DNA of 57,859 nucleotides, filler included, from Jimgerdemannia flammicorona (lineage: Eukaryota): NCBI GenBank assembly GCA_003990765.1. It is 3 parts of 3 records of this genome, joined end to end, with 100 filler letters (N's around TTAATTAATTAA, not from the genome) between each part and the next. Parts side by side here need not be neighbours in the genome. Positions count along the whole stretch, not along the records: positions 38,644 to 57,859 come from RBNJ01001998.1; 2 more parts are not named here. One strand, given 5' to 3'. The notes below the pieces were generated by a model. The model had not been told where the DNA came from. It did no database searches and saw only the letters and a program-made list of their open reading frames with translations. The translations under genes were made by a program, and so were the position numbers. This document shows, piece by piece, positions 38,644-57,859 of this stretch (position 1 is its first letter; each line of letters begins with the position of its first letter).

Positions 38644-38733
38644 GCGCTAGGCTAACACAGCTTTGCTGTGTTCACCAAGCTGAGCTTTGAAAAAGCTCAG
38701 CTAGGCTAATTTATTAAAAATCCCCCGGGGGGA

Positions 38734-38757
38734 CCGGAGGGCGACCAAGTCCGCCGG
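38734..38757. repeat. Dispersed GC element CCGGAGGGCGACCAAGTCCGCCGG (first of 8 copies)
   Basis: Other copies, in either orientation, near 41701, 44924, 46383, 52130, 52721, 53672 and 54444. Confidence 0.9.
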
Positions 38758-39114
38758 TTAGCCCCCCCCCCTAAAGGGGGGGGGGCAACCAATTTGCCAA
38801 CCTGGTTTTTCTTTTAGAAAAACCAGCTAGGCTAGCCCGGCCGGGGCAAAGTATAAGATTGCCACGTTATAGTTACTGTGTTAATATATTATTATAAGTA
38901 GCCCAGGGTTCTCCTATGGTCCCAGGATTCTCCGAAGGTCCTTGGGTCGTTTGATTCCTCTTCCTTGGGAGGTAAGAATTTAACCTTAGTCGTAAATGTG
39001 TTAAATCTTTCTTTCAATGTAGGTTGTGTTATGCTTCTCATTCTACCAATTCCTATTTGGGGAATAGAGGGGAATCATTATAATTCTTTAACCTAGAAAT
39101 ATTCTTTGATTAAT

Positions 39115-39264
39115 ATGCCTCAATTAGTTCCTTTTTATTTCCTTAACCAGGTATCTTATGGATTCCTATTTCTATTTATTCTAATTTTTGTATTATCTAA
39201 ATATTTCTTACCACTATTTGTTCAACTACAATTTGCTCGGACTTTAATCTCTAAACTAGGGTAA
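39115..39264 (+). CDS. atp8: Mitochondrial ATP synthase subunit 8 (49 aa)
   Basis: [49 protein letters not shown]. Confidence 0.98.
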
Positions 39265-39493
39265 TTATAGTCTACCCTCCCCCCTCATTTTCAAACTGAT
39301 CCGCTTAAATATTCGATATATAAGTAAAGTGATGTGCTTTGTGGGTGTATAACTTAACCCCACCGGGCGGCCCCGCCCACGGCGCTAGACGCTTGCGGCG
39401 GGGACCGTAGGTAATAATTAAGTCAAATTAGGAATATCGATTCGAATTTGGTTATACCCGCTTATGAATAGAATTTAAGTAAAGTATAAGTAA

Positions 39494-39554
39494 GGACATG
39501 ATAATCTCGGTAGGTATGAAAATATCAGTGTGGTTCGATTCCATTCCATGTTCA
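39494..39554 (+). pseudogene. Truncated tRNA-like remnant
   Basis: Acceptor-like GGACATG/CATGTTC and T-arm GTGG-TTCGATT-CCAT; D and anticodon arms not recognisable. Confidence 0.4.
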
Positions 39555-39753
39555 ATCCAGCAACGATATGTAATCTTAAGGGATGTCGCAGTCAAACATC
39601 CCTGTTTGAGTAAATAGGTGAGTCTTTGACCATCACAATAGTAAACCGACGAAGCTGTCGTTTAACATCAGTGGAGTCAGCAGATATCTCAGCGTTAATG
39701 AGAGTCTCTGTGTAACACCTTTGATACTCTTCTCAACTAAGTTTGATCTAACT

Positions 39754-40084
39754 CCCGGGGGGCAAGCGTCTAGCCCCCGAGGGGCTTGTCCCGTCGGGGG
39801 TGAGTCCCCCTTGGGACTAGCGTCTTGTATTTATACAAGATGCTGAACGCAATTATTGCTTAAGCAATAAAAGCGTCTAGCCCCGCAGAGCGGCGCTCGT
39901 CCCTGAGACCCGGCTACGGGGAGGGGTGAGTCCCCTTGGGACTAGCGCTGTGGCGCTACGCCTCTGGCGCAGGGATACCAGCGCATAGGGTTGTTTGTTT
40001 GTTTAAACAAACAACCTAGCGCGGTTTCTAATTTTTTATTTATAAAAAATTGTAATAGCGCCGTCCCTCCCGGGAGGGCGTGGG
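39754..40084. repeat. GC hairpin host element carrying five TAG-delimited modules
   Basis: Junctions end at 39773, 39820, 39880, 39945, 40019 and 40058. A near-identical four-module copy lies at 52790-53046. Confidence 0.9.
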
Positions 40085-40893
40085 ATTAGAAAATTCTATT
40101 ATAATGGTTTATTTAGTCTAATTGAGTTATACAGATCTTATATTAACTATATTGAATTGTTGGAATAAAGTATAAAGTATAGATTAATGAGTGAAACTGT
40201 AATGGATTACTATCGTTGAGAATACATTATGACTAAATTAAACTGTAATTGAGTAGCGATTATGGAGTATTCCTATTTATTCTAACTACTCCAAGTAGTT
40301 CAACTTCAGAGTATATCGCTAAGAACACTGATTTTGATCACGATGTGGATTACAATGTAGATCACAATGTAGAGCACTTTGAGGGACTTAGTGATATTAT
40401 TGATATTTCTGGTTATTCTACTTCCACACCTATTTCAATGGCTAAACCTGCTGTTGGTACTTTAACTCCTGCGGGTGTGTCACTCGTTGGTACTTCAGAA
40501 AATCATTCTAGTGGGACTCCCGGAGCACCATCTAGTGGAACTCCCGGTGAATCGATTTTAGGGGACCGGCCCCGGCCACGGCGCTAGTCGCTGGCTTTTA
40601 CTAAAGCCAGCTACATGCGACCGTGTCGTTGGGCTAAAGCCCTACGCCACAGCGCTAGTCGCTGGCCCGGGGCCGCCCTAAACAAACTTGCTGAAATTCA
40701 AATGAAACAGACTGAAATTTTATCTGAAATTCGATCTGAAATTTCATAATTGAAAGGCAATGTATCCGCTTCCCATGTTGAAATTCGAAAAGTACTTGCT
40801 GTTGAAATCCAAAATGTACGAGCGGATGTCCAATCTGAACTTTCTTCAATTAGATCGGAAATGAGATCAGAAATTAAAGCGTCTTCTCAATCG

Positions 40894-41233
40894 AGGGGAC
40901 CGGCCCCGGCCACGGCGCTAGGAGTGAGCGGCCTGCCTTAAAGCAGGCCCCTCGCTCCATGCGACCGTGTCCCGGCTTTTGTTAAAGCCGGGCCACGGCG
41001 CTAGGAGTGAGACCCAGCGGGGCTCGCTCCATGCGACCGTGTTTTTTCTTTTAGAAAAACCACGGCGCTAGTCGCTGGCTTTTACTAAAGCCAGCTACAT
41101 GCGACCGTGTCCGGGCTTTTGTTAAAGCCCGGCCACGGCGCTAGTCGCTGGCTTTTACTAAAGCCAGCGGAATGCGACCGTGTCGTTGGGCTAAAGCCCT
41201 ACGCCACAGCGCTAGTCGCTGGCCCGGGGCCGC
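40894..41233. repeat. Tandem array of four double-hairpin modules in a host element
   Basis: Alternating constant linkers CCACGGCGCTAG and ATGCGACCGTGT with variable hairpins. A one-module version lies at 40561-40677. Confidence 0.92.
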
Positions 41234-41434
41234 AGTAAAGAAGTTGGGGATTTTAAGGCGGTTGTAGAAGCTTTTAGCACTATTATTTCACCCCTTCTTG
41301 GTGCCATTATGGATTCCAATAAATCTGTAGTCAGCGCTGTTGTTGAATCTAATAAAGAAACAGCTAGACTAGTTGGATCTGCTCTGGATTCTAATAAAGC
41401 ACTAGTTTCGGAATTAGCGACGATTGTTGCTTCT

Positions 41435-41665
41435 AAAGATGGTATTTTGACATTTCCTACAGGAACATTTAAAGGGTTATATTATTCTGAAGAGTAACGA
41501 GTACTAACTTCACTTGGTTATTCGGTTGAATGTGAAAAGGGATATCTATTTGCTAGTTCTGATTTATTCACTGAGTATGTAGAACATTTCTATAAACTAA
41601 AATCTGAAGCTGCTGGTGGAGAAAGATATATTGTTAAACTGCTACTTAACGGACTATATGGCTTC
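41435..41665 (+). pseudogene. dpo: Plasmid-type family B DNA polymerase fragment
   Basis: FPTGTFKGLYYSEE*..LGY..GYLF..LFTEYVEHFYKLK..RYIVKLLLNGLYGF. Confidence 0.9.
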
Positions 41666-42269
41666 TGTTGCTCCCCCCCTTCTTTGAAGGGGGGGAGCTA
41701 CCGGAGGGCGACCAAGTCCGCCGGCCCCCCTGGGGGAGTCGATCTCAATATTATAACCAATCCTTAATTATCGATCAAAATGAGATTGTGGATCAATTTT
41801 TTTTTGCTGGAGGCAAACTACGTCTGCCAGCAAAAAAAAACCGCAGTGATCATCCGCCAGGAGGTCCTCTACTACCCCCATGTAATACTCCATCAATAAA
41901 CTCTCAATGTCCTAATGAAGAAGTGTAATAACCCACTTCACCAACATTTCTGCGTACGCCGGTGGGGGTCGGCCCATCGGCCCACCCTCCCCGAATGGGG
42001 GGGGGGAGCCGATTTATATATATTTATATATAAAATTCACAACTATATTATATTATAATATGGTAGTCGATGCTAGTCCCGAGGGGACTCACCCCTCCCC
42101 GTAGGGGGAAGCGACAACACTCTCCCCTCCCCGTAAGGTCTCAGGGGGGGGCTAGAAGAAATCTATTAAAATCAACAGTAAAGATTTACGACACCACAAG
42201 TGTGCTTTTGAGCATAGTAAGAGAAAATTCTCTTCATTATAGATTAAATCAACAATATTATAATTATAT

Positions 42270-42360
42270 TAGAGATTATAGGATTCGAACCTAGATAATG
42301 ATTACCATTAATGATCAGGCTTGATTGACGGTCCACGCTTAACCATTAAGCTAAATCTCT
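42270..42360 (-). ncRNA. tRNA-like RNA with enlarged anticodon arm (91 nt)
   Basis: Acceptor AGAGATT/AATCTCT, D-arm GCTT/AAGC, T-arm TAGG-TTCGAAT-CCTA; no canonical 7-nt anticodon loop. Confidence 0.6.
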
Positions 42361-42427
42361 ATAAATCATAGGATTTCTCTTAAGGCTAATGCAATACCTA
42401 TATCGATAGTTACCACGCTTCATAAAT

Positions 42428-42556
42428 TGAAGACCCAAGGATTCGAACCCTGATCTATCGATATACCACTGCATATAAGATTGGGCTTTTAGACCCAAAT
42501 ATTTATACACAGTGTGTCACAGTCTATCAATCGCTTTACCCTTTAGCTAAAGCTTC
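42428..42556 (-). ncRNA. tRNA-like RNA with a long hairpin in place of the anticodon loop (129 nt)
   Basis: Acceptor GAAG../..CTTC, T-arm CAGGG-TTCGAAT-CCTTG. Stem ATTGATA/TATCGAT encloses CACTGTGTATAA...TTATATGCAGTG. Confidence 0.6.
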
Positions 42557-43125
42557 TGAGCTGTATGATAGGTTATATGTGGGGGGGGTAACCCCATATG
42601 AAGAAGCCTTTCATCAATGTTATATTTGTTGGGTGTGTTCCAGTAACCCTCAGGTTACAGGAACACATATTCAAATTAAATCAATTCAAGTTAGTTAAAA
42701 AATCGTAATTCGTATTTCTAGGGTAGCTCCCCGCCCCGTCTTCTTTATAAGAAGACGGGGCCGGGAGCAAGTCGGCGTAGCCGAGGGTCCGGAGGAGGTG
42801 GCGGGAGCCACCCGGCACTACCCCCCTAGCATCTGTTGGTTGCACTGGTATGAAAAACCATACTACTAACCCGTTATACTGACATGCGTGTACAGTCGAT
42901 TACAGCTTGACATATTACCTATATCAAATAATCTATTTTGAATATCTAAACATCTTATGCTGGATGAGTGCCCACCCAGTTCGCTAATCTATAAAGTATA
43001 GCTGTCTAATTTGTTTAATTCATATTATAGGCAATGTGAATCCTATACTTATATTATGATAATAATTAATATTTCAACTTAAATACTAATAGGAGAAGTT
43101 TGGACCATTTAGAGTTGCAATCCAA

Positions 43126-43278
43126 CTACTTTTTTACTAACCCCAAGCATAAAACCGACGAATCCAAAGGAATGGATGGTAAGGGGCAATTTCTAACAGA
43201 AATGGTTAAAGAGGCAGAGTCACCGCCCCACCAATAAACAGTGATAAACAAGAAAAGTCATACAACATCAACGAAATG
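43126..43278 (-). pseudogene. cox3: cox3 C-terminal tail, copy 4, with read-through extension
   Basis: HFVDVVW(TGA)LFLFITVYWWGGDSASL...SVLCLGLVKK*. Confidence 0.85.
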
Positions 43279-43279
43279 G

Positions 43280-43659
43280 GGGGGAGGGGTGAACCCCATA
43301 AATAGACAGTGATAAATAAAAAAAGCCAAACAACATCGACAAAATCATATTACTCCTCTATTTTCATAGTGGTAAGGACTATATCTTAACTCAATGTTGA
43401 TAAAGAGCTTACTACACGTAGTCTCTGGGGTAAATTCCTGCTGATTGCCCAATCTCAACCGTTATTATCATTAAGATAGATAGAGTTTAAGGGTGTTTTA
43501 GCATTTGGTAGTATTCAAAATATTGATTATAATATTAAGGGTATTTTCATGCCAATACAGAATTGCTGCTTCAAACCCAGTATGATGAGAATCGGTGAAA
43601 TGGTAAGCAACCATTCTATACAAACAAACAGTTAAAAAAATAGTACCGATTAAGACATC
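43280..43659 (-). pseudogene. cox3: cox3 3' fragment, copy 3, split by a group I intron
   Basis: [36 protein letters not shown] / [19 protein letters not shown]. Confidence 0.9.
43346..43550 (-). ncRNA. Minimal ORF-less group I intron
   Basis: Core elements AAATGCT, AATCAGCAGG, CAGAGACTAC and AAGATATAGTCC in order, with terminal G at 43346. Removal restores W-H-F-V-D; boundaries are ambiguous by 2 nt. Confidence 0.85.
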
Positions 43660-43725
43660 TAGAGACCTAACTTATATAGCATACTTGGATGCATATATGG
43701 CCCAACTAACTTTTCGAAAATCTTC
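43659..43725 (-). pseudogene. C-terminal remnant of a LAGLIDADG endonuclease
   Basis: [17 protein letters not shown], abutting cox3 copy 3. Confidence 0.7.
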
Positions 43726-43816
43726 CATAGATTGAGCTCTAATAAAAATTCTCTTGGCTTGATTATAACCCCGAACAGTACAGTGCCAACCATATCGTAT
43801 AGCCATGGCTCCACTG

Positions 43817-43850
43817 TAACCGTATGTGCAACTTTCATCGCATACGGCTC
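43817..43850 (-). ncRNA. Group II intron domain V
   Basis: GAGCCGTATGCGATGAAAGTTGCACATACGGTTA: AGC triad, GAAA loop, AC bulge, 34 nt. Confidence 0.85.
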
Positions 43851-44001
43851 AAGCACTAAACTTACGAGTTATTACAATATACTAAATATACAAACAATCT
43901 ATGGCTGTAAAGATGGAGTTAAAATTATCCTTTAAGAACCTCGAATAAAGATAATACTCGAAGATTAAAAGGTAATATAAACAATTACAAAACGGATACA
44001 A

Positions 44002-44897
44002 TTAACCTTTTTTAAAAACATAAAGGCCTTTATAGACCTCCCCAGATCGAACCGCTTTAGAAATAGCACAATGGTTAATATTTAAGTATCTGGCTGCTTC
44101 TCTATACGATGGGAATGTAAATAATAATGAATTATCTGTGGCAGAGTATACCGAAACGCCTTGAGCTCTAGAGGTCAGAACGCCATACATTGGGTTATTT
44201 TCACCCGCCTTTGCTGCACTCATTGCCGCGACAGTCGAGTCCGAATGTCTTTTACCTCAATTTGGATTGTTTTCACCTTGATTTGCTGCACTGATTGCTG
44301 CTTTAGCTTCTGGCGTGTGCTGATAACCTCATCCTGAACCGGCTTTTTTGTAGTTTTTTATAGCGGGCACATGTCCGCCCTTGAAAAAACAAAAAAAACC
44401 GGTAAAAAGTTGAATCGACAGCTGGCCGGTAAAGAAAATAGCCAGTTCAAGTACAATTGCTCTCTTGAGAGTAGAAGGGCTTTAATCTCAGAAGGAGAAG
44501 TACCGGCAATAATTTCTACAAATTCTACGACGATAAATACAAAAGCGCCAATTCCGTACTTAGCGATAGCATTTCGTAGGTGAATGTTAGAAGAATGAAA
44601 AAAATGCTCATTCATTCTCTTGGAAAGATCGATAGTTGAACCAATGTAGATCGCGCCCGTAATTACACATCTAATAGCGTAAATGCCTGCTAATCCTTTA
44701 AGAGATTTAATGGCAGAGGCAAAATTATCAGTAATATTCAGATTCTCGAATTGCATTACACTAGGTAATGCTGCTGTGGGAAAAGATTCACCTTCACATA
44801 AGATAACGCTGTTTGAGCCTACAAGAATAATAATCCAAGCAATAAATAAAGTCATTGTAAAGAAACTAAAATTATGTGTAAATGAGTAGTTTTTCAT
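44002..44897 (-). pseudogene. Free-standing GIY-YIG homing endonuclease, frameshifted by a hairpin insertion (~44345-44400)
   Basis: AGIYAI..IYIGST..KRMNEH..REQ..FNFLP, then NUMOD3 repeats (GENNPMYG) and a C-terminal SYREAARYL helix-turn-helix. Confidence 0.93.
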
Positions 44898-45719
44898 GAT
44901 GGTGTTGTAGGCCCCCGGGGGGACCGGCGGACTTGGTCGCCCTCCGGTCCCCCCGGGGGATTAAATAAAATAAAATCAAATAAATAGGGGGGGTCAATGA
45001 TAAATATAACTAGTTCCTAATTAGTTATAGCGGGGACAAAGCCCCCGACTTTCTCACACCATTAAGAAGGTGACTGCCGTCCAAGCCTTTTCCTCTTGAA
45101 AACCGTTTTATCTTGATCACCTTAGTCACTTAATGTGTGTCATCGACCGGCTATACATGGATTAATTTACTATTATATTACCGAAATGGAGTTACCTCCT
45201 AGACGACTCATGGAGTCCTCTCCTAGAGACTGTATCTATAAGCCATAGATTTCGTTGATATCTCTTTAAATATCTCTATCTATATAGCTCAGGGATGTCG
45301 TGGATCCTCTTTGATCCGGAGAGTACCTTTCCTGGGTATAGCTCCTTCAGTTTATTGTGGTTTTAATTCAATATTCACAATTTCTTAGACATCCCCATAT
45401 GACTTTTTAAACGTAACAGCAAACTGAAATAAGTATATACAGAATTCAGTAAATAAAGCTGAAACCGGTAAATAAATAACAATTAATATACTATAGCCAA
45501 AAGAGATTCTGGTCTGATTAATACCACGATTAGCCCCTCCCTTTAGGAGGGGCCAGCGACGAGCGCCGTGGCCCGGGGGGGGCTACCAGTGGTAAAATCT
45601 TTATCCTTTTTGTTAATGTCCTTTACTTATAAAGAAGATGAAAAACTTAAAATATAACGCAAGGGGACTGCCATCCATCCTTCGCATTAGTAGAGAACAG
45701 CCATCTAACCATAAGAAGT

Positions 45720-46700
45720 TAAATATTTATCCTTTTTGTTAATTGCCTATACCTATATTGAAAAATTGGGTGCGGCCCCGGGGGGACAAGGGGCGGGTAT
45801 ACGACCCTTCCCGCCTCGTTAGCACCCGCCCACATCTCCTGGGTAAGCTTACCCAGGAGCCGAGGGGGGGAGCAACCCCCGGGTAAGTGTAATCTGTATG
45901 GAGGGGGTGAAGGCCGGTAGCAACGATTTAGCAACTCAACCCGATCTAGAGACGCCGCGGGGACCCCTTTACAAGTCGGCAACAATCCGCAAGAGAAAAA
46001 CTATCGGTACAAAACAATAGCCCAGTACTCGCCCACGTCCCATCTCCCATCACCCAGTGCGCAATACCTTCAGCATTAAGATATGTAAATAAATGAATAT
46101 CCGCAGGAACGACTTTCTTCCCTAGAACATAAAACATATTATAGAACACCGTTAGACACAAGAGGGCGCGAGTATAGAACGCTACTGTTTTAATTACTCC
46201 ATCAACAATCTTACTTGCGTCAGGGAGAGAATTACAAAAAGGGCTAAAAATGAAAAACACAAACCAGAAATATGGGGCATGCTCTGGAATAGATTGTACA
46301 AAGGTGAATCTCACTAAATTGGTTCCCTTTTGTAGATACCCGTCAGACAGCATAATTCCAAAAAGGATGCACGCCTCCCGGGCCGGCGGACTTGGTCGCC
46401 CCCGGCCCGGGAGGACCATATTAAATGGTAGTTGAAACATATGTGCTAGGTATTTAGGCATTTGATTAGCGAATAGCCCAATAGAAGTGCGATCCCATGG
46501 TTAAAGAACCCCAAACAACTAATGCTGTACATGTTGTTGGAGGAAATAATAGAGCCACTTTTTTCATAATTCTCTTTGTATCTTTATGGGTATAACTTAC
46601 CGGTAGTAAGGTTGCCCAGCATAAAAAGGGGTCGTCTAAAAAAATGAGTGAAGATGAGAAAAATATTACAGGTCAATAATGCCACACAATAACGTTAGAA
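45720..46700 (-). pseudogene. Double-motif LAGLIDADG endonuclease interrupted by GC elements
   Basis: CTALVVWG, LFGIMLSDG, IAHWVMGDG and LCTDSFS-like motifs. Confidence 0.9.
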
Positions 46701-46711
46701 AGAATGAAATT

Positions 46712-47099
46712 AAAAACATACATAGCAAAAGCCTGTACTTCGTTGAAAATACTACCCGTGGGGCCCACGGGTGGGACGGCGCTAGACGCTTGCCCCCCGT
46801 GGGTTTGTACAAAATTGTAATTCGTTGAAGATACTACTTAATACTAGCTGTCCTTTACCAGTCACTAAATGATCAACTCATTGCGGAAGAAAACTCTCCC
46901 ATAGATCGTGAAAGGCAGTTACTGGGAATAAACCGACAGCACCCCCTACACCCGAACCTACTAATAAGACTAAAATCCTTACTAGTACCCCAGTGTAGAG
47001 TAAGTTACGATCGGCAATCCACTTAAAATAAATAGCGGTAATCCGAAGGGATGGTAAGGTGATCACTAAAATCATAATTCAAATTAAAATTCAAACCAT
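46712..47099 (-). pseudogene. nad2: nad2 5' fragment (degenerate)
   Basis: ILVITLPSLRITAIYFK...VGSGVG..GLFPVT and EVQAFAMYV. Homologous, with its upstream flank, to 56611-56970. Confidence 0.7.
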
Positions 47100-47255
47100 T
47101 ACAACTTAACAACAATAACAAGAAAATCTAAAATCCTGTTTCTTATATGTTCTGCCAGATTCTAAAGTTAGCCAGACCTAACCGTAAGGGTGTGATTAGC
47201 CCCCGCCCTATACTAGAGAAGATCGATATCTAAATAATGGGGGGGGGGGGGGGGG

Positions 47256-47927
47256 CTAAGAGCCCCATAAATAAATAGAAACGTATAAAAATAGCCAGAC
47301 AACATCTACAAAATGTCAGTAAAGAATCGCCGTTTCAAAGCCAACTGGATGATGATTTGTTAAATGATATGATAAAAGTCTGAAAAGGCATACAATTAAG
47401 AATGCCGAACCAATAATAACGTGTAGTCCGTGGAAACCTGTTGACATATAAAAAGTACAACCGTAAACTCCATCTGCCAATAGTTAATGGAGCATTGTAA
47501 TACTCGAAAACTTGTAAACCAGTAAAAATGGCAGCTGCGCCCGCGGGGCGCTGCAGTAAAACTATGTTTAACAGCTAAGATAATAGTAAATAGTAAACCA
47601 TAAAAAGAACCATTTCTAGAGCCAGCGATCAAGCTGTGGTGAGAGTATGTTAAAGTCGCTTTTTTTGGTTTTTGCTGGAGGCAAACTACGTCTGCCAGCA
47701 AAAACCAAAAAAACGGAGCTCAATAAAATAACTGTGTTCAATAAAGGGATCTCAAAAGGATTCATAGTCTCAATACCTGCTGGAGGCCAAATAGAACCTA
47801 ATTCAACTGTAGGAGCTAACGCGGAATGGAAAAATGCCCAAAAAATACTAAGGAAAAAGAAAACTTCCGAGATAACGAATAAAATAAACCCTAAAGTTAA
47901 GCCAGACCTAACCGCAAGGGTGTGGTG
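47256..47927 (-). pseudogene. cox3: Displaced cox3 3' two-thirds, copy 2
   Basis: [17 protein letters not shown]...[19 protein letters not shown], broken by palindromic insertions (~47662-47712, ~47531-47554) and a frameshift. Confidence 0.93.
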
Positions 47928-47937
47928 ACGACCCGCC

Positions 47938-49395
47938 TTACACTAGAGAAGATCGAAAGATCCATAAAGATTTACTAACCTTCCCCGTATCGATCATACG
48001 GTAAACAGACGTTGCAGAGATATTACAGAATTTTGCAGCGGCTGTGATTGTAGGAAAAGTACCAACATATTCATTGTTGTGCGTATACACATAGACTGCT
48101 TTACTTAGATGATGATAACTCCCTGACATTTTTGCTAGCGTCTCTGGGGAATGTTTGAACCCTAAGCTCGATTCTGCCATAGAAAGAATGTTATAATAAG
48201 GGTGGAAAGTATCTAACGCTAGTTGTTCAAGAGTTAATAGTTGTTCCCGAGAACAAAAGCAAAGAATTGAGAACGTAAAAGCGGATAGCGAATACTTCAA
48301 GAGAGCGTTCTGTAAAAGAATATTCGAACTACCACCGTACAAATGTTGATGCAATCTTCTCGCCAAATCAACAGAGCTACCAATATACTGGTGCTCATTC
48401 AGCTGATTAGTAAAAGCGTAGATCCCTGTTTGGCCTCTCAGCTCCGCCTTAATAGCCGAATAGTTTTCGAGAATATCCGAATATACAGTAGGGTTTGAAA
48501 AAGGATCATTAAGAGGGGTTCCTTCACACATTACATTATTAAAGAAAAAATCCATGATTGTTTGAACATCGATATCCAAAAATAATGAGGGGGAGGCGGG
48601 AGAACCCCACCAATAAATAGTAATGAATAAAAATAGCCAGACAACATCTACAAAATGTCAGTAAAGAATCGCCATTTCAAACCCTTCATGATGATGGTTT
48701 GTTAAATGATATGATAAAATTCTGAAAAGGCATACAATTAAGAATGCCGTACCAATAATGACGTGAATTCCATGAAGCCCGGTTGTCATATAAAAAGTAG
48801 AGCCATATACTCCATCTGAAATAGTAAATGATGCATTATAGTACTCATAGGCTTGTAGAGCTGTAAAAATCGCAGCCAAGAAAATAGTAATAAATAAACC
48901 AAAAATAGTACCTTTTCTAGTCCCAGCGATCAGACAATGATGTGAATAAGTTAAGGTGGCTCCTGAGCTTAATAATAATACGGTGTTTAATAAAGGGACT
49001 TCAAATGGATTTAACGATTCGATACCTGCGGGTGGTCACATGCACCCTAACTCTACAGTTGGGGCTAAAGATGAATGGAAGAAAGCCCAAAAAAAACTAA
49101 TGAAAAAGAATACCTCTGATACAATGAAAAGTAAAAAGCCTAATTGTAGACCACGTCTAACCTGCAGTGTATGGTGCCCTTGGAAAGTTCCTTCTCTACT
49201 AACGTCCTTTAGCCACAAAGCCATTGAACTAACTGTAGCAATAATCCCTAAAGCCAATAACAAAGGCCCGTTAGAGTAACCATGAAAACACATAACTCCA
49301 GATAAAGTAGTAGTTAATAAAGCGAACGCAACCGATAAAGGCCATGGAGATGGCTCAACTAAATGATACGGATGAGCTTGAATTGATCTAAGCAT
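47938..49395 (-). CDS. cox3: Cytochrome c oxidase subunit 3 fused in frame to a GIY-YIG endonuclease (code 4; alternative ATG at 49419)
   Basis: [12 protein letters not shown]...[19 protein letters not shown], with TGA=Trp at 49036 and 48658. No stop follows; the frame continues [12 protein letters not shown]...GIYAFTN..YIGSS to TAA at 47938. Confidence 0.95.
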
Positions 49396-50364
49396 AATAT
49401 AAACTATATAACCCATCATTTACCCAGCTGCCCCAAGAGTCTTAATAAACCCTTACCCAATCCCATATACTTGATATTAGGAGGCAGTAAGATACTACTA
49501 ATTATGGGGGATCAGTAGAATGGTGATGTATCTCTTCTTAATACCCTCCGATCAACCGAAGGTTGATGGGGGAGAGGAACTAGAATTAAAGGAATCTTAA
49601 GATAAACTATAAGAATCGCTTACTCACTTGAGGAGTGTTCTAGTACTTCCTTTTATTAATTTACAAGAATCGGTAATGCTGGCCAGCCTAGGGAAATGAA
49701 GTACTAGCTCCTCGTAAGAGGGGCGTTGGGGTTCTTTTCTTGGTCAACTTTAATAATGGAGGGTTCCTACGGACTAAAGGAAGAAAGGAGAACCACGTTC
49801 TCGCTTCGCCCCTGGAATCAGGGACAAGTGCCGATTCAGCGTGTCCAATCGGAATAGAGCTACCCTCACACAATCTAAGGTTCATGGAACTCAAGAGAAT
49901 GGGAGGGTATGGAGAGTTGGGTTGTCCTTCTGTCTTTGTGTATGTGTGTTGTATGTGTGTTTAGATTTGGTTATTATTGTATATTCTGTGAGGTATCAGT
50001 CCCCCATATTAACGGCCGGCCGGCCGGCCGGTTGATCATTCGATCTACCTTAACGATGGGAGGGTTAGTGGAGTAGGGTATGCTTCAGAGGGAGTCGTCG
50101 TTTGCTCCATTTCTGGGGCTCGTCGTGCCGCGTGATCGATCATGTTGACCATGGAAGCCTCCTCAATGAGAAAACAGGTCGTGTGAACATCGAACGAACT
50201 GGGGAAGCGAGCAATAGGAGGATATACATAGGGGTACGACGTGGTCGAGCTTTATTCTGTGAATGCTCCGGATGACATGGGAGTCTGTTGTCCCGTTGGG
50301 GTTGGTTGGTAGGATGGGGAGAGGTTTGTTAGTTGTGAATGAAAGAAAAGGGATTTTGTGTATA

Positions 50365-50436
50365 GGTGAGGTAAGGAGTCGAACCTTAATAATCAGATTA
50401 TAACAATCGGATGCTTTGCCTGTTAAGCTACCCACC
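50365..50436 (-). pseudogene. Degenerate tRNA, probably Asn(GTT)
   Basis: D and T arms intact. The anticodon loop is 9 nt (TTGTTATAA), the stem has a mismatch, and the acceptor lacks one base. Confidence 0.55.
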
Positions 50437-51324
50437 TAGAGGGTAACCCCCTTACCCTCGACCACAATGTCCTTATTTTTGCCTATTTTCTTACCCAAAG
50501 TAGGCCGGCCCGGGGGTGAGTGGGGTGAAACCCTACTACTTTTAAGCACCTTCGCCAAAACGGCTTCAGTTTCTCGTGTATAATCCTTGTGTTTAAGGTT
50601 TTGCCTACAGCGCTTTGGTATAGCCATACCCTACAGCACAAATACGACCTTCCTTACAACACCTTATTACTCCTCAAAGGCCTTAATAATACGGTTTCAT
50701 TAAACTCAGGGTTATGAAAGGTGCTGTTACCATGCCCCTGGGTTTATCGTCTTATTTTAGTAAGAACGGGTCGACTTCTCAAGAAGGGGTCAAAGTCTCA
50801 CTTTGAAGCCGGTTTCGGAGAGGGAGATTGAGCCCCCAGATAGGGCTCAACTCGCCCGGGAGTGGAGCGACCTCCCACAAGCCTCAGCTTACTACAATCG
50901 GATAGAGCTTCGGGAGTTCTGCGACCACAATGTTCTGTCCTGTCTACTTTGTAGACGCAGAGGGGTCTGGGGATTCTTCCCCAGGTCCTTTGGGTATCAC
51001 CCGGTTTAAGACCCTAAGATTAAAGATGGCTGGGCCTAAGCCCGATTAACGGTCTTGGAGCGAACCAGGCGTTGTGGGGTATACAGAGGCGGCCATTTTG
51101 CTTGATTGTTAGTACATTTGAGATACAGTCTGATTTAAGCCACGTTTTAAGTGCTATATACATAGGTCACATTCGTCCATCACCTCAAGGTTACGGGACA
51201 TTTTCTTACGTAAGCAAAACACTATCGGGACTTTATCGAGTTCGAAAAATATATATTTATATATATTTTTTAATTTTTATATTATATATAAAAATCGATT
51301 TCAACCCCCCCCCCGTAGGGGGGC

Positions 51325-51622
51325 GGGCCAGCCGTGGCGCCTCTAACCAGGGTACAACAATCTTTGTGAACCAGATTCGGCACGGTCGCATGGTTGGTTT
51401 GTGGCCCCCGGAGGACTCCCCTCGGAGTGTTCCGAGGGGGCCCCCCTGGGGTTTAAAACAAACCAGCCTAGCGCCGTGTCTGCCTATAAATATGCTGCAC
51501 GGTCGCATGGTTGGTTTGTGGCCCCCGGGAGGACTCCCCTCGGAGTGTTCCGAGGGGGTTGCCCCCCCCCTAAAGGGGGGGGGCTAGTTAAACAAACCAG
51601 CCTAGCGCCTTCCGCCGGGGCC
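51325..51622. repeat. Two large TAG-delimited double-hairpin modules
   Basis: CACGGTCGCAT-GGTTGGTTTG...AAACAAACCAGC-CTAG occurs twice. Confidence 0.85.
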
Positions 51623-52004
51623 AGTAATTAAATTAACCAAAGTTGCCTCTGCCTGAGTACTTTCAACACCCCATTACTCAGTTTAACGTAATTCTCGCAC
51701 GCTTGATCATTGTCTGCTTGTTGAGAATTTTCCTTTACTTATATATCTTATCTCTTATACATATATTACACACATTTACTTATATCTTATCTCTTACACA
51801 TTATATTATAATGTCTTACTTCAACCTAGCTCTACCTTCGAGTCCCACGCTTCGAACCATGTCTGCTTGTGGATTCGATTCCTTCTCTTCTATGTTTTTA
51901 TATGGCCGGAGTCATTGTTACCGGAGCTTAGAATATAGAGACCTTCAAAGGGCTAGAAGCCACGAGCTGAGGGCCGGGCCTAGAAAAAAAACTAGTTAAT
52001 CTAA

Positions 52005-52053
52005 CCCACGGGGGGCAAGCGTCTAGCGCCGTCCCTCCCGTGGGCCCCGCGGG
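52005..52053. repeat. Empty host hairpin element (no modules)
   Basis: GGGGGCAAGCGT-CTAG-CGCCGTCCCTCCC. An inverted empty copy lies at 46755-46803. Confidence 0.9.
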
Positions 52054-52789
52054 AATATATATTTTATATATTTTCGATAGATATTATATATAATATCTAT
52101 AGACGACCCCCTCCCCGTAGGGGGGGGGACCGGCGGACTTGGTCGCCCTCCGGTCCCCCCGGGGGGTAATCTGAATAATTAATTAGACTGTATATCTATA
52201 TCTTAAGTCCTGTTGGCTTAAATTACAATATACTTAGAAATTGTATTCATCCAGCAATTGAAATTGTTTTATATGTACTATGTTTATGCGAATATTTACA
52301 GTATAAACAGATTTAATGAGTCGTTAGAAGCGTTTCTCTCCTTATTCGCCCTAGGCCCCCAAGGGGCCTCGCCCCGTAGGGCCAAGCCCGACAGGGCTAG
52401 AAGGGATATAATTTAACACCATGCAAAACCATTACTCACAAACTCTTGCTACATTCACTCAATACGTGCTACCTAGATTATCTGGTGCATTGAGTAGGCA
52501 GCTACAGCTTTTATTGAAGCTGCTAATACCACTGTACTAACAATCTATCTTATAATCAGTATGCTAAGTTAACTGGTTATATTAATTCTTCCAATATTCA
52601 TGCTGCGTATAGAGCAGCATTACTTGAATTATTATCGTTTGGTCTAAATCAAGTCTAATTATGCCAATGCAACTGAACGAACATCTACTTCTGGAGGTAT
52701 TGTTTCCGGCCCCGGGGTGGCCGGCGGACTTGGTCGCCCTCCGGCCACCCCGGGGCTCTTTTATCAGGTTTAACCACAATTGTATCAAC

Positions 52790-53046
52790 CCCCTGGGGGC
52801 AAGCGTCTAGCCCCCGAGGGGCTTGTCCCGTCGGGGGTGAGTCCCCCTTGGGACTAGCGTCTTGTATTTATACAAGATGCTGAACGCAATTATTGCTTAA
52901 GCAATAAAAGCGTCTAGCCCCGCAGAGCGGCGCTCGTCCCTGAGACCCGGCTACGGGGAGGGGTGAGTCCCCTTGGGACTAGCGCCTTGGTTTTCTAATT
53001 TTTTATTTATAAAAAATTGTAATAGCGCCGTCCCTCCAGGGGGGCG
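52790..53046. repeat. Host element with four modules
   Basis: Junctions end at 52810, 52857, 52917, 52982 and 53025. Confidence 0.9.
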
Positions 53047-54796
53047 TATTTTACCTATTGCCCATGCTATTATTGAATCTAATTATGCTTTAGCTGAGTC
53101 TAATCTTGCTTTAGCTTCAGCTATTAATCTTAGAACTCAACTTGATTTGATGAATCTAACTGCACAGCCTGTAAAAACGGTTGTCGATAATTCATTAATT
53201 ATTGAAAATAATGGAACCCATGACCCTTTCATTGAAGTATCACTGGATACGAATAACCCGTTTTCTAAGGATCTAGCTAATACAGATCCATTTAATTCTC
53301 CCTCTCCATTTTGGGTTACCCCCCTAGGTAGTAACCTGCCGGGTCTAGTTCTCCGGCAGCCCCTGAGGGTTGGAGCCCTCCTGATGACGGAATTTCTCTA
53401 CTTTCACCAAACTTTTGGGATGACGGTTATTTTTGGGAATGGGATGAAGATGAAGGTGAACAATATTTTGATAGAGAAATGCCAATTCCATATGAAGGTG
53501 TTGAGTTACCAACTTTTAAGGTATTGTAATTAAAGAATCAATTCATACTAATGAATATATGTCTACGATAAAATAATATATATATTATTTTATTGAATGC
53601 CCCCCGGGAGACAAGGGGACAACGGTCCCGCCTCCCGGGGTTATTAAAATAAAATTAGATTTCCCGGGGTGGCCGGAGGGCGACCAAGTCCGCCGGCCAC
53701 CCCGGGACCGAAACCACAGTATCGGTCGCTCCGATAAATATTATATAATAATATTTATTAAAAATATATAAAGATATTTTAGATGGGAGCTCTGGTTCTC
53801 TTGCAGAGCGGGAGTTAAGTGTTACTTTAGCTGAAACTATGAAAAACCCGGATGGGACAAATACATATCCAGTACCTCCGATGATACCGAGCGAACTGTA
53901 GAAATTACGCCAGATGAAGCAGGTTTTAATTCTAAGTTATGAGCAGATATTGATTCTAGACTCTGAATCCATGAACCAGCTACAGAAGGGTTTATTTTCC
54001 CATCATGGGATCCTGTGTCTGTTTCAACAATGCCAATCCCATATGATGGTGTTGAGTTCCCGCTACAAGGTTCTGCACATTTAAACCCTATTATGGTTTT
54101 AGATTCTCCATCATCTATGGATTATGATTTCCATGAAGAGTCACTTGATTCTGCACCTTTAAAACTTACTATGAATTTACAATCTCCCCCAGATGTGGAT
54201 TATAGAGTTACTGAGGAACCACTTCTAGATCTTGATGTTCATGATGAGCTATATTTAGATCAACTGCTGCTTGCTCGGGATCCAGCTCTATGTGAACCTA
54301 ATTATGATGCTCCAATTGGGAGTTCCCCCCTCGCAACGCGAGTAGTACCTGTAGAGCCTTTAATTGAGCCGTCCCGGAATATTCTGAGTTTTTAGATTTA
54401 CCAGTCAATACACCTTCTTCGAGTGTACCGATCCCCGGGGGGACCGGCGGACTTGGTCGCCCTCCGGTCCCCCCCGGGGACTTGATACAACTTCACCATT
54501 AGATCAAGTCAATACTGAACCCCACGCCCCCCGGGAGACAAGGGGACAACGGTCCCGCCTCCCGGGGTTTATAAACAAGTTTATGACCGTCTCTATACCT
54601 AAATATAGATGCTTTAATTACGCATAAAGATTTTCAGGCCCCGGGCGCCACGGCGCTTAGTCGCTGGCCGCCCGGGTCGTATGCAAATAAAAACATACTA
54701 TTAACCCATTATACTGACATGCGTGTACAGTCGATTACAGCTTGATTCGGGGGTGCACGGGGACCCCCCGGCCATAGGTCACGGGGGGTCCCCAAC

Positions 54797-55072
54797 ATTT
54801 TTTGCGGCAAGCGACTAGCCCCCGAGGGGCTTGTCCCGTCGGGGGTGAGTCCCCCCTTGGGACTAGCGCTGTGGCGTAGGGCTTTAGCCCTAGGATACCA
54901 GCGCATGGGTCGTGTGCTATGGCACACGACTAGCGCTGTGGCGCTACGCCTCTGGCGCTGGGATACCAGCGCATGGGGTTGTTTGTTTGTTTAAACAAAC
55001 AACCTAGCCCCCGAGGGGCTTGTCCCGTCGGGGGTGAGTCCCCCTTGGGACTAGCGCCTATTGCAAAAAAAA
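54797..55072. repeat. Module array (four modules)
   Basis: CTAG junctions at ~54815, 54864, 54930, 55004 and 55051. Confidence 0.88.
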
Positions 55073-55885
55073 AGCAAGTAGTAACCATTCTTCCTAGCCT
55101 AGTTGTGGAATAACAATTGCCGCCGCCGCCGCCGCAACTATTACGGCCTTTCAGAGAGACATAGCTTAAATGGAGAACTGACTTTTTTTTTTTTTGTTTT
55201 TGTTTTTAATCAGGCGACCCCCGGGCCACGGCGCTAGTCGCTGGCCCCGGGGGTGATTATCACAAATGGAAATATTGTATACAATAACCTGATTCGATTC
55301 CAGTGAGTCTATAATATAAGTAAAGGAAGGCATGGGTAGGTATACCATGCTCCGCGCCCCTCCATTATTCGGGTTAAAAGGTTTGTTCCCAAATATACCT
55401 AAATAGCACACTATGCCCTATTCAATAACCCTATAGCTATATATTTAATCATGAATATTCATATGAGTCGCCATAACTCACTCAATCTACAATTTTTATT
55501 CTATAATTTTTTTGATTTTCATTCTATAGGTGGGTAGGTCCAAAACACACACATGTGTGTGTTTTTGATTTTTATATAAATATAAAAATAGATTCCCCTC
55601 TTAGCCGCAGATTTCCAGCCATTTTACCCGGCCGCACAAATCAAGGGGATGTTTGTGACCTCTCTAAGCCGCATATTTTAACCCATTTTCCCCACTAGTC
55701 AAAATCAAGCCATTTTTGTTTGCTGAAGGTTTTTTAACGGGGGCACCTTCTCGGGCAGCACCCTTATTCGGTTAGTGCTCACTTAACCCGGGCTTTGATG
55801 GCAGATTCCTCACTATCTCGAATTTGGCCTATAGAACCCGTGAATCCAACAAAGCCAGGATTTACGATATTCTACCCCCGGGGCT

Positions 55886-56066
55886 CCCGGCCGGAAGGCG
55901 CTAGGCTTGTTTGTTAAAACAAACGAACCCCATGCGCTGGTACCCTTGGGCTAAAGCCCTACGTCACAGCGCTAGGCTTGTTTGTTAAAAACAAACCAAC
56001 CCCATGCGCTGGTACCCTTGTTAGTTTAAACTAACAACGTCACAGCGCTAGGCTTGCCCGGCCGGA
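55886..56066. repeat. Module array (two modules)
   Basis: CTAG-GCTTGTTTG...ATGCGCTGGTACC...CACAGCG-CTAG occurs twice. Confidence 0.88.
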
Positions 56067-56644
56067 AGTTGGCCTAAATATTCGTATTTTAAATAACCAC
56101 CCTTTTAACCAATAGGGCCCCCCCCAAAAGTGTAAATGAGATAGGATATTTTACACAAGGCGTTTGAGCGGGGAAGTGCCGGCTCCAACATTACCGGAGA
56201 TTCGTGTCTATGCCGTTAAAAAGCGTTCTGGACTACCCGACTAAAGAGTATTCTAGCGAGGTAAAACTCTAAAAACAACGAGCTTTGAGACTTACACAAC
56301 GCTAGCCCTGTCGGGCTTGGCCCTACCCCTTGGGGGCCTAGAAGAAACTTGCCCCCAAGCCAATTACCTATAAATAACGGGAAAAGTGGTCTCCTTACCA
56401 TTTTAGATGGGTGGCTCCCGCCAACCTCCTCCGGAGGCCACAGAGTGTATTACAATGGTGTGGAGATTAACACTAACCATAAAATAAGTAAAAGTTTAAA
56501 TGGTTCAATATAAGAGGAGAACTATCAGGATTTATTATGTAAGAGACGGGTTGAATTTAATAAAAGAAACAATAATCTTAGATTCTCTTGTTAATAAAAG
56601 TAATAAGAATTTAAGATTCTCTTGTTAATGGTTGTTAAGTAGTA

Positions 56645-56970
56645 ATGGTTTTATTTTCTATTTTAATCCTGATTTTAGTGATCACCTTATCTTCCCTTCG
56701 GATTAACGCTATTTATTTAAAGCGGCTCTTTATACGTTACTCATTGCTGGGGTGTTAACAGGACTATTGTTAGCAGGTCCGGGCAATGGGCTATAGAGGG
56801 TTTATTCCCAGGAACCAACAATGAAATTGATGAAGGACTGCCAGTATTAACCAAATACCTCCATACAGTATTATTTACTGTATCTGGTACGAGTTGTTTA
56901 ATTTCAAGTTGGGATCTAGTTTCTATGTTCTCATCAATTGAACTTCAGAGTTTTGCTGCGTATGTTTATA
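56645..56970 (+). pseudogene. nad2: nad2 5' fragment (degenerate)
   Basis: MVLFSILILILVITLSSLRINAIY... and LISSWDLVSMFSSIELQSFAAYV. Confidence 0.8.
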
Positions 56971-57430
56971 GTTCTGTAATTTCTAAATTCACAGTACTCT
57001 GCGAAGGCACTTCAGACGAACCTAGTGTAGCTCAATTTTCTAATCTCCATTTAACTGACCAGCTAGTATCTGCGTATCAACAATTAAAGGGCCTAGCTGG
57101 TATTTATTGTTTTAAAAAATTACTGGGGCTATGTACATCGCCCCCGGCGGGCCAGCCTAGCTGAGCTTTTTCAAAGCTCAGCTTGGTGAACACAGCAAAG
57201 CTGTGTTAGCCTAGCGCCTTCCGCCGGGGGAGGATCATCTATTAATTTAGCGGTTAGAATGAGAGATCCCATCACACATACGTGTGATTGCCATCTTAAA
57301 AACGCTTTCTTAAAATATGGTTTAGCCTCGCACCGGGGTGCGCAGCCACCTCGGTGCGAGGTAACTCTCCCCTCCCCGCAAGGTCTCGAGTGGCCTCTTT
57401 TCTTTTTATTATCATTGAATATGTAGCAAA
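56971..57430 (+). pseudogene. GIY-YIG endonuclease remnant in frame with the nad2 fragment, broken by hairpin elements
   Basis: VLCEG..LKGLAGIYCF / GSSINLAVRM / LKNAFLKYGL / FLFIIIEY. Confidence 0.85.
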
Positions 57431-57480
57431 TTAATCCAGAGAGCTACCCTGGGGCAATTAGTGCTTTATTATTACTTCGT

Positions 57481-57786
57481 TTTTTTTTTGCAAGACGGCG
57501 CTAGGTTGTTTGTTTAAACAAACAAACAACCCCATGCGCTGGTATCCCAGCGCCAGAGGCGTAGCGCCACAGCGCTAGTCGTGTGCCATGGCACACGACA
57601 TGCGCCCTGCCTCCATCAGGGTATACCCATATTGCGCACAGCGCTAGTCGTGTGCCATAGCACACGACCCATGCGCTGGTATCCTTGGGCTAAAGCCCTA
57701 CGCCACAGCGCTAGTCCCAAGGGGGGGACTCACCCCCGACGGGACAAGCCCCTCGGGGGCTAGTCGCTTGCCGCAAAAAAAAAAAT
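57481..57786. repeat. Module array, inverted relative of 54797-55072
   Basis: CTAG junctions at 57501, 57575, ~57644, 57711 and 57760. Confidence 0.88.
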
Positions 57787-57859
57787 CCCGGGGCCAGCGA
57801 CGAGCGCCGTGGCCCGGGGGAGTGAGCAAATTTATTTGAATTGGCTCTTTTCACTACCT

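Follow-up and report, generated by a model that had tools for sequence, protein, structure and literature searches.

A stop-less cox3 that reads into a GIY-YIG nuclease in Jimgerdemannia flammicorona: a mobile element with two candidate processing signals at the junction

How does a mitochondrion obtain ordinary Cox3 from a gene that has no stop codon and reads directly into a nuclease? The question is raised by one contig within the window, the whole stretch of 57,859 nucleotides of Jimgerdemannia flammicorona DNA that was analysed, which consists of three contigs with N spacers between them. Positions 38644-57859 are RBNJ01001998.1 (G000:C1998), and this contig is mitochondrial, carrying genes that use TGA for tryptophan, tRNAs and intron remnants; the protein records that match it bear an Endogonales species label. 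A first-pass annotation of the sequence had called the fusion of Cox3 to the nuclease obligatory, and had suggested that it is resolved either at a CEG motif reminiscent of inner membrane peptidase (IMP) sites or by RNA processing.

On the minus strand the frame 49419-47938 is open over 493 codons (translation table 4), and Pfam divides the 493-residue product into COX3 (residues 16-273), GIY-YIG (331-407) and NUMOD1 (440-474). The end of Cox3 (...YWWGS) is joined to the nuclease by a linker of 24 residues, with no stop codon between them. The features of the fused gene, in window positions, are as follows.

49178-49419, minus strand: resident 5' part of cox3; the frame opens at 49419 and the likely start is the ATG at 49395, which matches the start of P0002
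47929-49177, minus strand: intron-less mobile element of 1,249 bp, comprising a new cox3 tail, linker and GIY-YIG ORF, delimited by the X2 joint
48601-49177, minus strand: element-borne cox3 3' tail, ending ...YWWGS without a stop, from frame and tail alignments
48586-48600, minus strand: C-rich motif, PASPS in frame, a candidate mRNA 3'-end signal with core CCTCCCCC
48520-48534, minus strand: VMCEG motif, where an IMP-type cut is predicted after Cys 48528-48526 and before Glu 48525-48523
47938-48525, minus strand: predicted mature nuclease of 195 residues, stop TAA at 47940-47938
48429-48199 and 48102-47998, minus strand: GIY-YIG domain and NUMOD1, from Pfam

The observation that cox3 lacks a stop and reads through into the nuclease is confirmed by the open frame and by two further lines of evidence. 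An 878-nt contig from an independent soil run of DNA (X1) matches 48557-49434 without a difference or a gap, reaching 44 letters beyond the junction at 48601/48600, and the same fusion occurs in a relative (P0002, P0165 and P0166), where it reads WWGSPASP and TMCEC. The window and P0002 are identical at 155/192 positions of the tail, 11/24 of the linker and 115/195 (59%) of the nuclease; in P0004, the spliced model of a gene at a matching locus, the junction is left out. The fused copy is also, as first noted, the only complete cox3: a COX3 family search of the genome gave four matches, all on this contig and only one of them full length, in agreement with a DNA search. An assembly error or a nuclear copy is rejected on the basis of the X1 contig, the three proteins of the relative and the genome-wide COX3 search. 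Among the 80 cox3 loci from metagenomes, 78 contain the sequence WHFVD, and all 78 of these ends stop 20-27 codons past it; the metagenome scan recovered cox3 genes, none of them a fusion locus. P0168, a 265-residue Cox3 that shares a 90% cluster with the fusion P0002, terminates at WWGS, which suggests a stop-bearing allele in that relative as well, although the end may be a contig edge.

The stop codon was lost to a selfish DNA element that took over the end of cox3. The insertion point lies at the codons for Gly-His-His-Thr, and HHT restarts at both 49176 and 47927. In run X2 one contig joins 49178 directly to 47928, leaving out exactly 1,249 bp, the joint being carried by this single contig with 41 letters on its shorter side. 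As this contig has nine differing letters and lacks the insertions and the frameshift of the displaced tail (copy 2), it represents another haplotype without the element; the letter differences and the missing copy 2 insertions rule out a spliced-out element. The layout is that of the Allomyces and Glomus type, with an in-frame replacement tail, an endonuclease ORF and the displaced tail downstream, and the presence of the element is optional, the element-free allele being represented by the one X2 contig. The nuclease was correctly described as intron-less: an Rfam search of 47929-49177 found no intron match around the ORF at E <= 0.05. The anatomy and the element-free allele show that the element is mobile, and its cutting activity is predicted from sequence. 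A free-standing GIY-YIG homing element thus inserts at cox3 codon 82/83 and makes the gene whole again by supplying a 3' tail that it carries itself.

Further along the contig the following remains are found.

47256-47928, minus strand: displaced cox3 tail (copy 2), ending ...LWGS-TAG and interrupted by a 1-nt frameshift as well as by two insertions (~52 and ~40 nt)
47195-47255, minus strand: scar of an earlier sister element, from alignments
46785-47197, minus strand: ~35 nt of another cox3 tail, then a nad2 5' remnant
45949-46500, minus strand: broken LAGLIDADG_2 ORF, from Pfam
44002-44897, minus strand: second GIY-YIG ORF, with its own ATG, a hydrophobic leader and ILCEG at 44804-44790; frameshift near 44390
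43285-43849, minus strand: more cox3 tail pieces, in which the exon ends ...LWGS and is followed by a C-rich motif, again without a stop
43126-43278, minus strand: final cox3 tail copy, ending ...WWGG plus 31 extra codons that include VLCLG at 43155-43141
56721-57209, plus strand: third GIY ORF, a nad2 5' remnant followed by VLCEG at 56994-57008 and GIY at 57099, breaking off right after GIY

The scar consists of 17 C and then the start of the same linker as in the cox3 fusion, which passes, by way of letters common to both, into the very end of the GIY-YIG ORF of that fusion; since the linker start abuts the end of that ORF, the scar marks a sister element from which the nuclease has been deleted. 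Intron traces lie among the tail pieces at 43285-43849: a remnant of group II domain V (43849-43818) and the core of a group I intron (43583-43355), the latter under the Rfam gathering score. The cox3 locus thus appears to be a record of repeated invasion and decay. Many ORFs across 38644-57859 are broken by small GC-rich or palindromic insertions; those at 47660-47713 and 47532-47571 interrupt tail copy 2, and both are absent from the X2 haplotype.

The first-pass annotation saw a distinct expression strategy here, which overstates the case for the fusion itself. Hybrids between host genes and mobile ORFs (mORFs) have been published for atp6, atp9, cox2 and nad3 of Glomus sp., atp6 of Allomyces macrogynus, atp9 of Rhizopus oryzae and cox2 of Mortierella, and those of Glomus atp6 and nad3 are stop-less, in-phase hybrids of host gene and endonuclease (PMC3630166), so the fusion is known in kind. 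The in-phase Glomus mORFs differ in encoding LAGLIDADG enzymes, whereas here the target is cox3 and the enzyme GIY-YIG, and serial invasion with several tails, as seen here, is unlike the Glomus cases; the accessible part of that account names neither a processing site nor an RNA-end signal. Exon-fused intron homing endonucleases are likewise in frame with upstream host sequence and are thought to be matured by proteolysis, with no protease or site named in the accessible text (PMC7487136), but around the cox3 ORF there is no intron and the host part is a whole protein. Neither of the two junction signals, the C-rich RNA element and VMC-EG, was found described in the literature searched.

The reading that we favour, with a probability of roughly 0.45 and hence tentatively, is that RNA processing supplies ordinary Cox3 and that an IMP-type cut resolves the read-through product. 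The C-rich 3'-end element past WWGS would set the end of most cox3 mRNA, and the resulting message would encode Cox3 plus ~5 residues and have no stop; it would be freed by non-canonical termination, or might gain a UAA if the A-tail follows U after the C run. A minority of unprocessed transcripts would be translated as the fusion.

What points to RNA processing is the position of the C-rich motif. The core CCTCCCCC occurs within ~30 nt past the stop of atp6 (both tails), atp9, nad1 and nad4, that is in four of the five other genes read, and is missing after the stop of the fifth, cox2; it is not rare, with 29 distinct occurrences in the loci read, the majority away from gene ends. Because the first linker codons are the motif that follows the stop in other genes, most cox3 mRNA probably ends at the junction without a stop, and the conservation of PASP may reflect an RNA motif instead of a protein need. 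The suggestion of RNA processing is strengthened accordingly in one part, the junction coinciding with a gene-end motif, and altered in the other, as the stop is more likely to be made unnecessary than created. With a candidate RNA-end signal and a candidate protease site both at the junction, the fusion is probably not obligatory at the protein level. Comparable elements are known: a C-rich motif marks mitochondrial mRNA 3' ends in Schizosaccharomyces pombe, where 3' processing occurs (PMC3185421), mapped mature mRNAs of yeast nad4 and nad5 lose their stop codons via such 3'-end elements (PMC11789488), and stop-less mitochondrial mRNAs arise in Ramalina from 3'-end elements inside ORFs (PMC13706191). 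As far as these accounts are accessible, a gene-end processing element sits upstream of the first in-frame stop in yeast and Ramalina as it does here, but at this locus the cause is the fusion of a selfish element, and the part removed encodes an intact nuclease.

Contigs identical to cox3 end at 48607 (X3), 48621 (X4) and 48637 (X2), matched to their last letter, all 7-37 nt upstream of the motif, and the DNA run X1 extends past these points. X3 is RNA on record, X4 and X2 are RNA by guess, and contigs show neither RNA ends nor levels, so that these ends give a weak hint of an RNA end near the junction; that of X2 falls inside a 47-nt repeat common to two tails, and X3 and X4 extend beyond the repeat. 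X2 also holds one low-depth contig within the nuclease ORF, and a lack of RNA coverage there does not mean that the ORF is silent, since contigs drop records and cannot rank depth.

It is unlikely that, as in the main idea of the first-pass annotation, protein cleavage does all the work, the cox3 mRNA always being full length, every Cox3 a fusion cut by IMP at VMC-EG, Cox3 keeping 24 extra residues and the surplus nuclease mostly discarded in the intermembrane space. Frame and motif are intact in the relative at 59% nuclease identity, the ORF is included in the Glomus hybrid transcripts as published (PMC3630166), and Imp1 is able to remove C-terminal segments, as in Mgr2 (PMC8847149), all of which would suit such a route; yet the gene-end C motif is located exactly at the junction, exporting a nuclease with every Cox3 made would be a heavy burden, and, as a weak point, the junction is uncrossed by RNA contigs in 3 of 3 RNA-like runs and crossed in the DNA run.

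The second signal, the CEG motif, lies where it was first placed: VMCEG at 48534, ILCEG at 44804, VLCEG at 56994 (plus strand) and VLCLG at 43155. Its distance from GIY, given as about 30 residues, is 34 residues from the Cys in the cox3 fusion, 37 in the second ORF and 33 in the third. The hydrophobic segment said to precede it is present in part, but the cox3 linker itself is not a membrane segment (19-residue hydropathy <= 0.94): ahead of VMCEG the segment is the last helix of Cox3, and ahead of VLCEG in the third ORF it is the nad2 5' remnant. VLCLG is not supported as a fourth site, since taken alone it is at chance level, the loose pattern giving 28 matches in six frames of the window; LFC-LG is found in the intact leader of L038.

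In the open frames of the same genome, 18 of the 44 matches to [IVLATF]xC[DE] are N-terminal in a nuclease ORF, GIY-YIG in 14 cases and LAGLIDADG_2 in four; LAGLIDADG_2 ORFs with the motif number six, two extra coming from the anchor list, where four of nine have it. In most cases a hydrophobic leader precedes the motif. As the motif also precedes LAGLIDADG_2, an unrelated fold, it is not a structural element of GIY-YIG. A survey of relatives, which had been proposed as a check, bears the motif out in part. C[DE] stands 30-40 residues upstream of GIY in 28 of 66 relatives (those among the best 150 library matches in which GIY could be read and was preceded by 45 residues or more), far above shuffles (mean 1.6, maximum 7), but many relatives lack it, and 28/66 overstates its frequency because the sequences used to build the survey profile themselves carry the motif. 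A looser count among the best 150 library matches found the motif in 32 of 75. An AlphaFold model from 73 sequences (mean pLDDT 86.9) places NNVMCE between an amphipathic helix and the GIY-YIG domain, as the sole stretch under 50. The pLDDT minimum, the unrelated fold that carries the motif and the many relatives without it weigh against a motif that is part of the folded nuclease; despite a nearly constant spacing to GIY (33-34 residues), we regard this, or a read-through that is an assembly or nuclear-copy artefact, as highly improbable, the junction being independently confirmed.

Across 29 sites, P3 is V in 17, I in 4 and L in 4 (25/29 together), P2 is Y in 9, F in 7, S in 5, L in 4, H in 2 and D in 2, and P2' is G in 18; some relatives have Ser, Ala or Leu at the Cys position. 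Twelve short leaders are mostly signal-peptide-like, with an N-region charge of 0 to +2 in 11, and the 15 residues past the site carry a net -3 or -4 in 12/12. P0016 has a new hydrophobic segment between its cox2 exon and ILC-EG. A search for LAGLIDADG homologues returned three proteins only, one with a leader ending HYS-DG, and an Atlas search with a leader returned no matches. Several motif-less GIY-YIG relatives (P0080, P0124, P0134, P0142 and L018) have R-x-Y-S/T-S/T upstream of the domain, which we take to resemble a site of the matrix processing peptidase (MPP). Among the 66 relatives, one has both C[DE] and the MPP-like R-x-Y-S/T, 27 have the motif only, six the MPP-like site only and 32 neither, with no significant mutual exclusion of the two (Fisher p = 0.22).

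Free-standing ORFs that retain leader and site, with no host protein to free, suggest that the signal serves the element. L036, a free-standing relative from the same subgroup that has an ATG, a leader and VFC-EG of its own, also bears on the improbable case of separate translation, in which the nuclease would start from an internal ATG (48555, MDFFF, or 48531, MCEG) on a downstream processing product or by reinitiation, the motif being a leader left over from free-standing relatives and the long frame incidental. The linker does hold two in-frame ATGs, many relatives start just at the domain, and TAATG links cox3 to a LAGLIDADG ORF in L075 and L076; however, P0002 lacks the first Met and its frame is still open over a linker with an in-frame 6-codon indel, and C-E is conserved where the flanks have diverged.

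We consider it likely that VMC-EG is a protease site of some kind, and on balance lean towards an IMP site. The published Imp1 motif is [I/V][H/D/F/M][N]-[D/E], with Asn at P1 in all known yeast substrates (PMC8835746). On this published description VMC-EG matches at three of four positions (V at P3, M at P2, E at P1') and differs at P1, where it has Cys and not Asn, and the Y, S or L frequent at P2 in relatives is outside the yeast set. The Cox2 leader of the genome itself ends VFN-DA and that of a relative VYN-DA, and nucleases have VFC-EG and VYC-EG. Imp1 is said, from work attributed to Chen et al. in 1999, to tolerate Ser, Ala and Leu at P1. In known yeast Imp1 substrates such as the Cox2 leader the site also follows a membrane segment, but the product here would be a DNA nuclease. 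The earlier proposal of an IMP-like site thus gains from the matching positions, from a place outside the fold and from recurrence in LAGLIDADG proteins, and is weakened by Cys at P1, cleavage being predicted only. The IMP gene of this genome was found as exon pieces on G000:C8702, below the family cut-off, and searches of the genome with PF10502 and PF00507 gave no matches. The literature searched, in which subscription papers were mostly outside coverage, describes no IMP-type site or signal-like leader in homing endonucleases.

The IMP proposal had overlooked the side of the membrane. The C-terminus of Cox3 is expected on the intermembrane-space side, and its loop charges agree with an outward-facing end; the charges of the leaders likewise indicate a C-terminus-out orientation. 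The IMP active site faces the intermembrane space (PMC11626719), so that an IMP cut would free Cox3 but strand the nuclease away from mtDNA, on the wrong side for a homing nuclease. In the favoured combination of RNA processing and IMP cleavage, the nuclease would follow the Cox3 C-terminus to that side, where inner membrane peptidase would cut VMC-EG to yield free Cox3 and a 195-residue nuclease, and the same site behind a signal-peptide-like leader, observed as a motif and predicted as a cut, would be general in GIY-YIG and LAGLIDADG proteins of this lineage.

The puzzle of topology disappears if the motif is cut by a matrix-side or intramembrane protease, or by self-cleavage at Cys, releasing the nuclease beside mtDNA. 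Proteolysis is said to be the way in which exon-fused nucleases mature (PMC7487136, as far as accessible), and such a cut fits some nad2 fusions (L023 and the third ORF of the window), whose site lies just ~13 residues past a helix and should face the matrix. This Nad2 helix is expected to end in the matrix. We nevertheless judge a matrix-side release improbable, as the leader charges favour C-terminus-out, the Cox3 C-terminus should face outward, and the motif is like the Cox2 leader site and unlike the R-x-Y-S/T sites of motif-less relatives. A broader and doubtful proposal is that in this fungal lineage the mitochondrion secretes homing endonucleases belonging to two unrelated folds. They would be exported across the inner membrane behind a signal-peptide-like leader or an outward-facing host C-terminus such as that of Cox3, and released by IMP into the intermembrane space; when organelles or hyphae fuse they would act in trans on mtDNA in other mitochondria, with their own genome shielded.

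In the nuclease itself Pfam PF01541 (GIY-YIG) scores 36.4 bits, above its cut-off, the C-terminal DNA-binding module NUMOD1 is present at residues 440-474, and the catalytic positions Tyr, Arg, His and Glu align. The top fold match is the catalytic domain of I-TevI (PDB 1mk0 and 1ln0; E 1.4e-4, 27% identity over 93 columns), a phage intron enzyme that, unlike the leader- or host-fused nuclease here, has no membrane leader. Alignment and model place the protein among GIY-YIG homing endonucleases with an I-TevI-like fold, and its predicted target is element-free cox3. In a quick tree (78 rows, 137 columns) it groups with P0002 and P0003 (98), this group stands outside the main one of motif-bearing proteins, and the starred branches require no fewer than four gains or losses of the motif. 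Net charge per 100 residues has a median of +3.0 in motif-bearing proteins against +3.85 in the others (21 vs 40, p = 0.014); as the looser pattern used for this comparison put the wrong label on two rows or more, and related sequences are not independent of one another, lower charge is not counted as an adaptation to export.

Release of fused mitochondrial homing endonucleases by proteolysis is widely assumed, and here there is a precise candidate site, like that of the Cox2 leader and common to GIY-YIG and LAGLIDADG proteins. Should IMP prove to be the protease, selfish nucleases would be crossing the inner membrane, and homing between mitochondria would have to be seen in a different way. 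The junction illustrates how an essential respiratory gene tolerates the loss of its stop to a selfish element, and for annotation it explains stop-less cox3 models and shows that such tails are mobile and call for caution in phylogenies.

Related arrangements occur elsewhere. The 5' end of nad2, cut after SIELQSFAVY, is fused in frame to GIY-YIG ORFs in many copies (L035:1276-2454, L037:6193-7173, L011, L022, L023, L166:346-1053 and window 56721-57209), and the real nad2 is uninterrupted at that point (intact copy L156:2-820); these fusions look, from sequence, like a mirror-image element that duplicates the N-terminus. In L075 and L076, two close relatives, the cox3 stop overlaps the ATG of a LAGLIDADG-like ORF (TAATG), and this coupling is a second way of expressing a tail-borne nuclease. 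GIY-YIG ORFs are linked to cox2 in L167:1217-1630 and L033:721-1158; one such ORF, frameshifted and with a hydrophobic leader, comes directly after cox2, and another, behind an early cox2 exon, carries a leader that ends AILC-EA. The C-terminal tail of atp6 is duplicated in L165:1483-2259 and L166:1483-1773, with TAA TAG and the C-rich motif in both copies.

Among the other features of the window, positions 1-38543 are two nuclear contigs unrelated to the cox3 finding and packed with decayed retrotransposon frames, in which gag, dUTPase, reverse transcriptase and integrase-like pieces were recognized by eye. On the mitochondrial contig, ARAGORN calls a tRNA gene with anticodon TTA (stop) at 50363-50437 on the minus strand, which is probably damaged or edited, as Rfam places two extra letters in its anticodon loop. 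A short ORF at 41498-41767 on the plus strand contains the motif KLLLNGLYG and resembles what would remain of a family B DNA polymerase of the mitochondrial-plasmid type.
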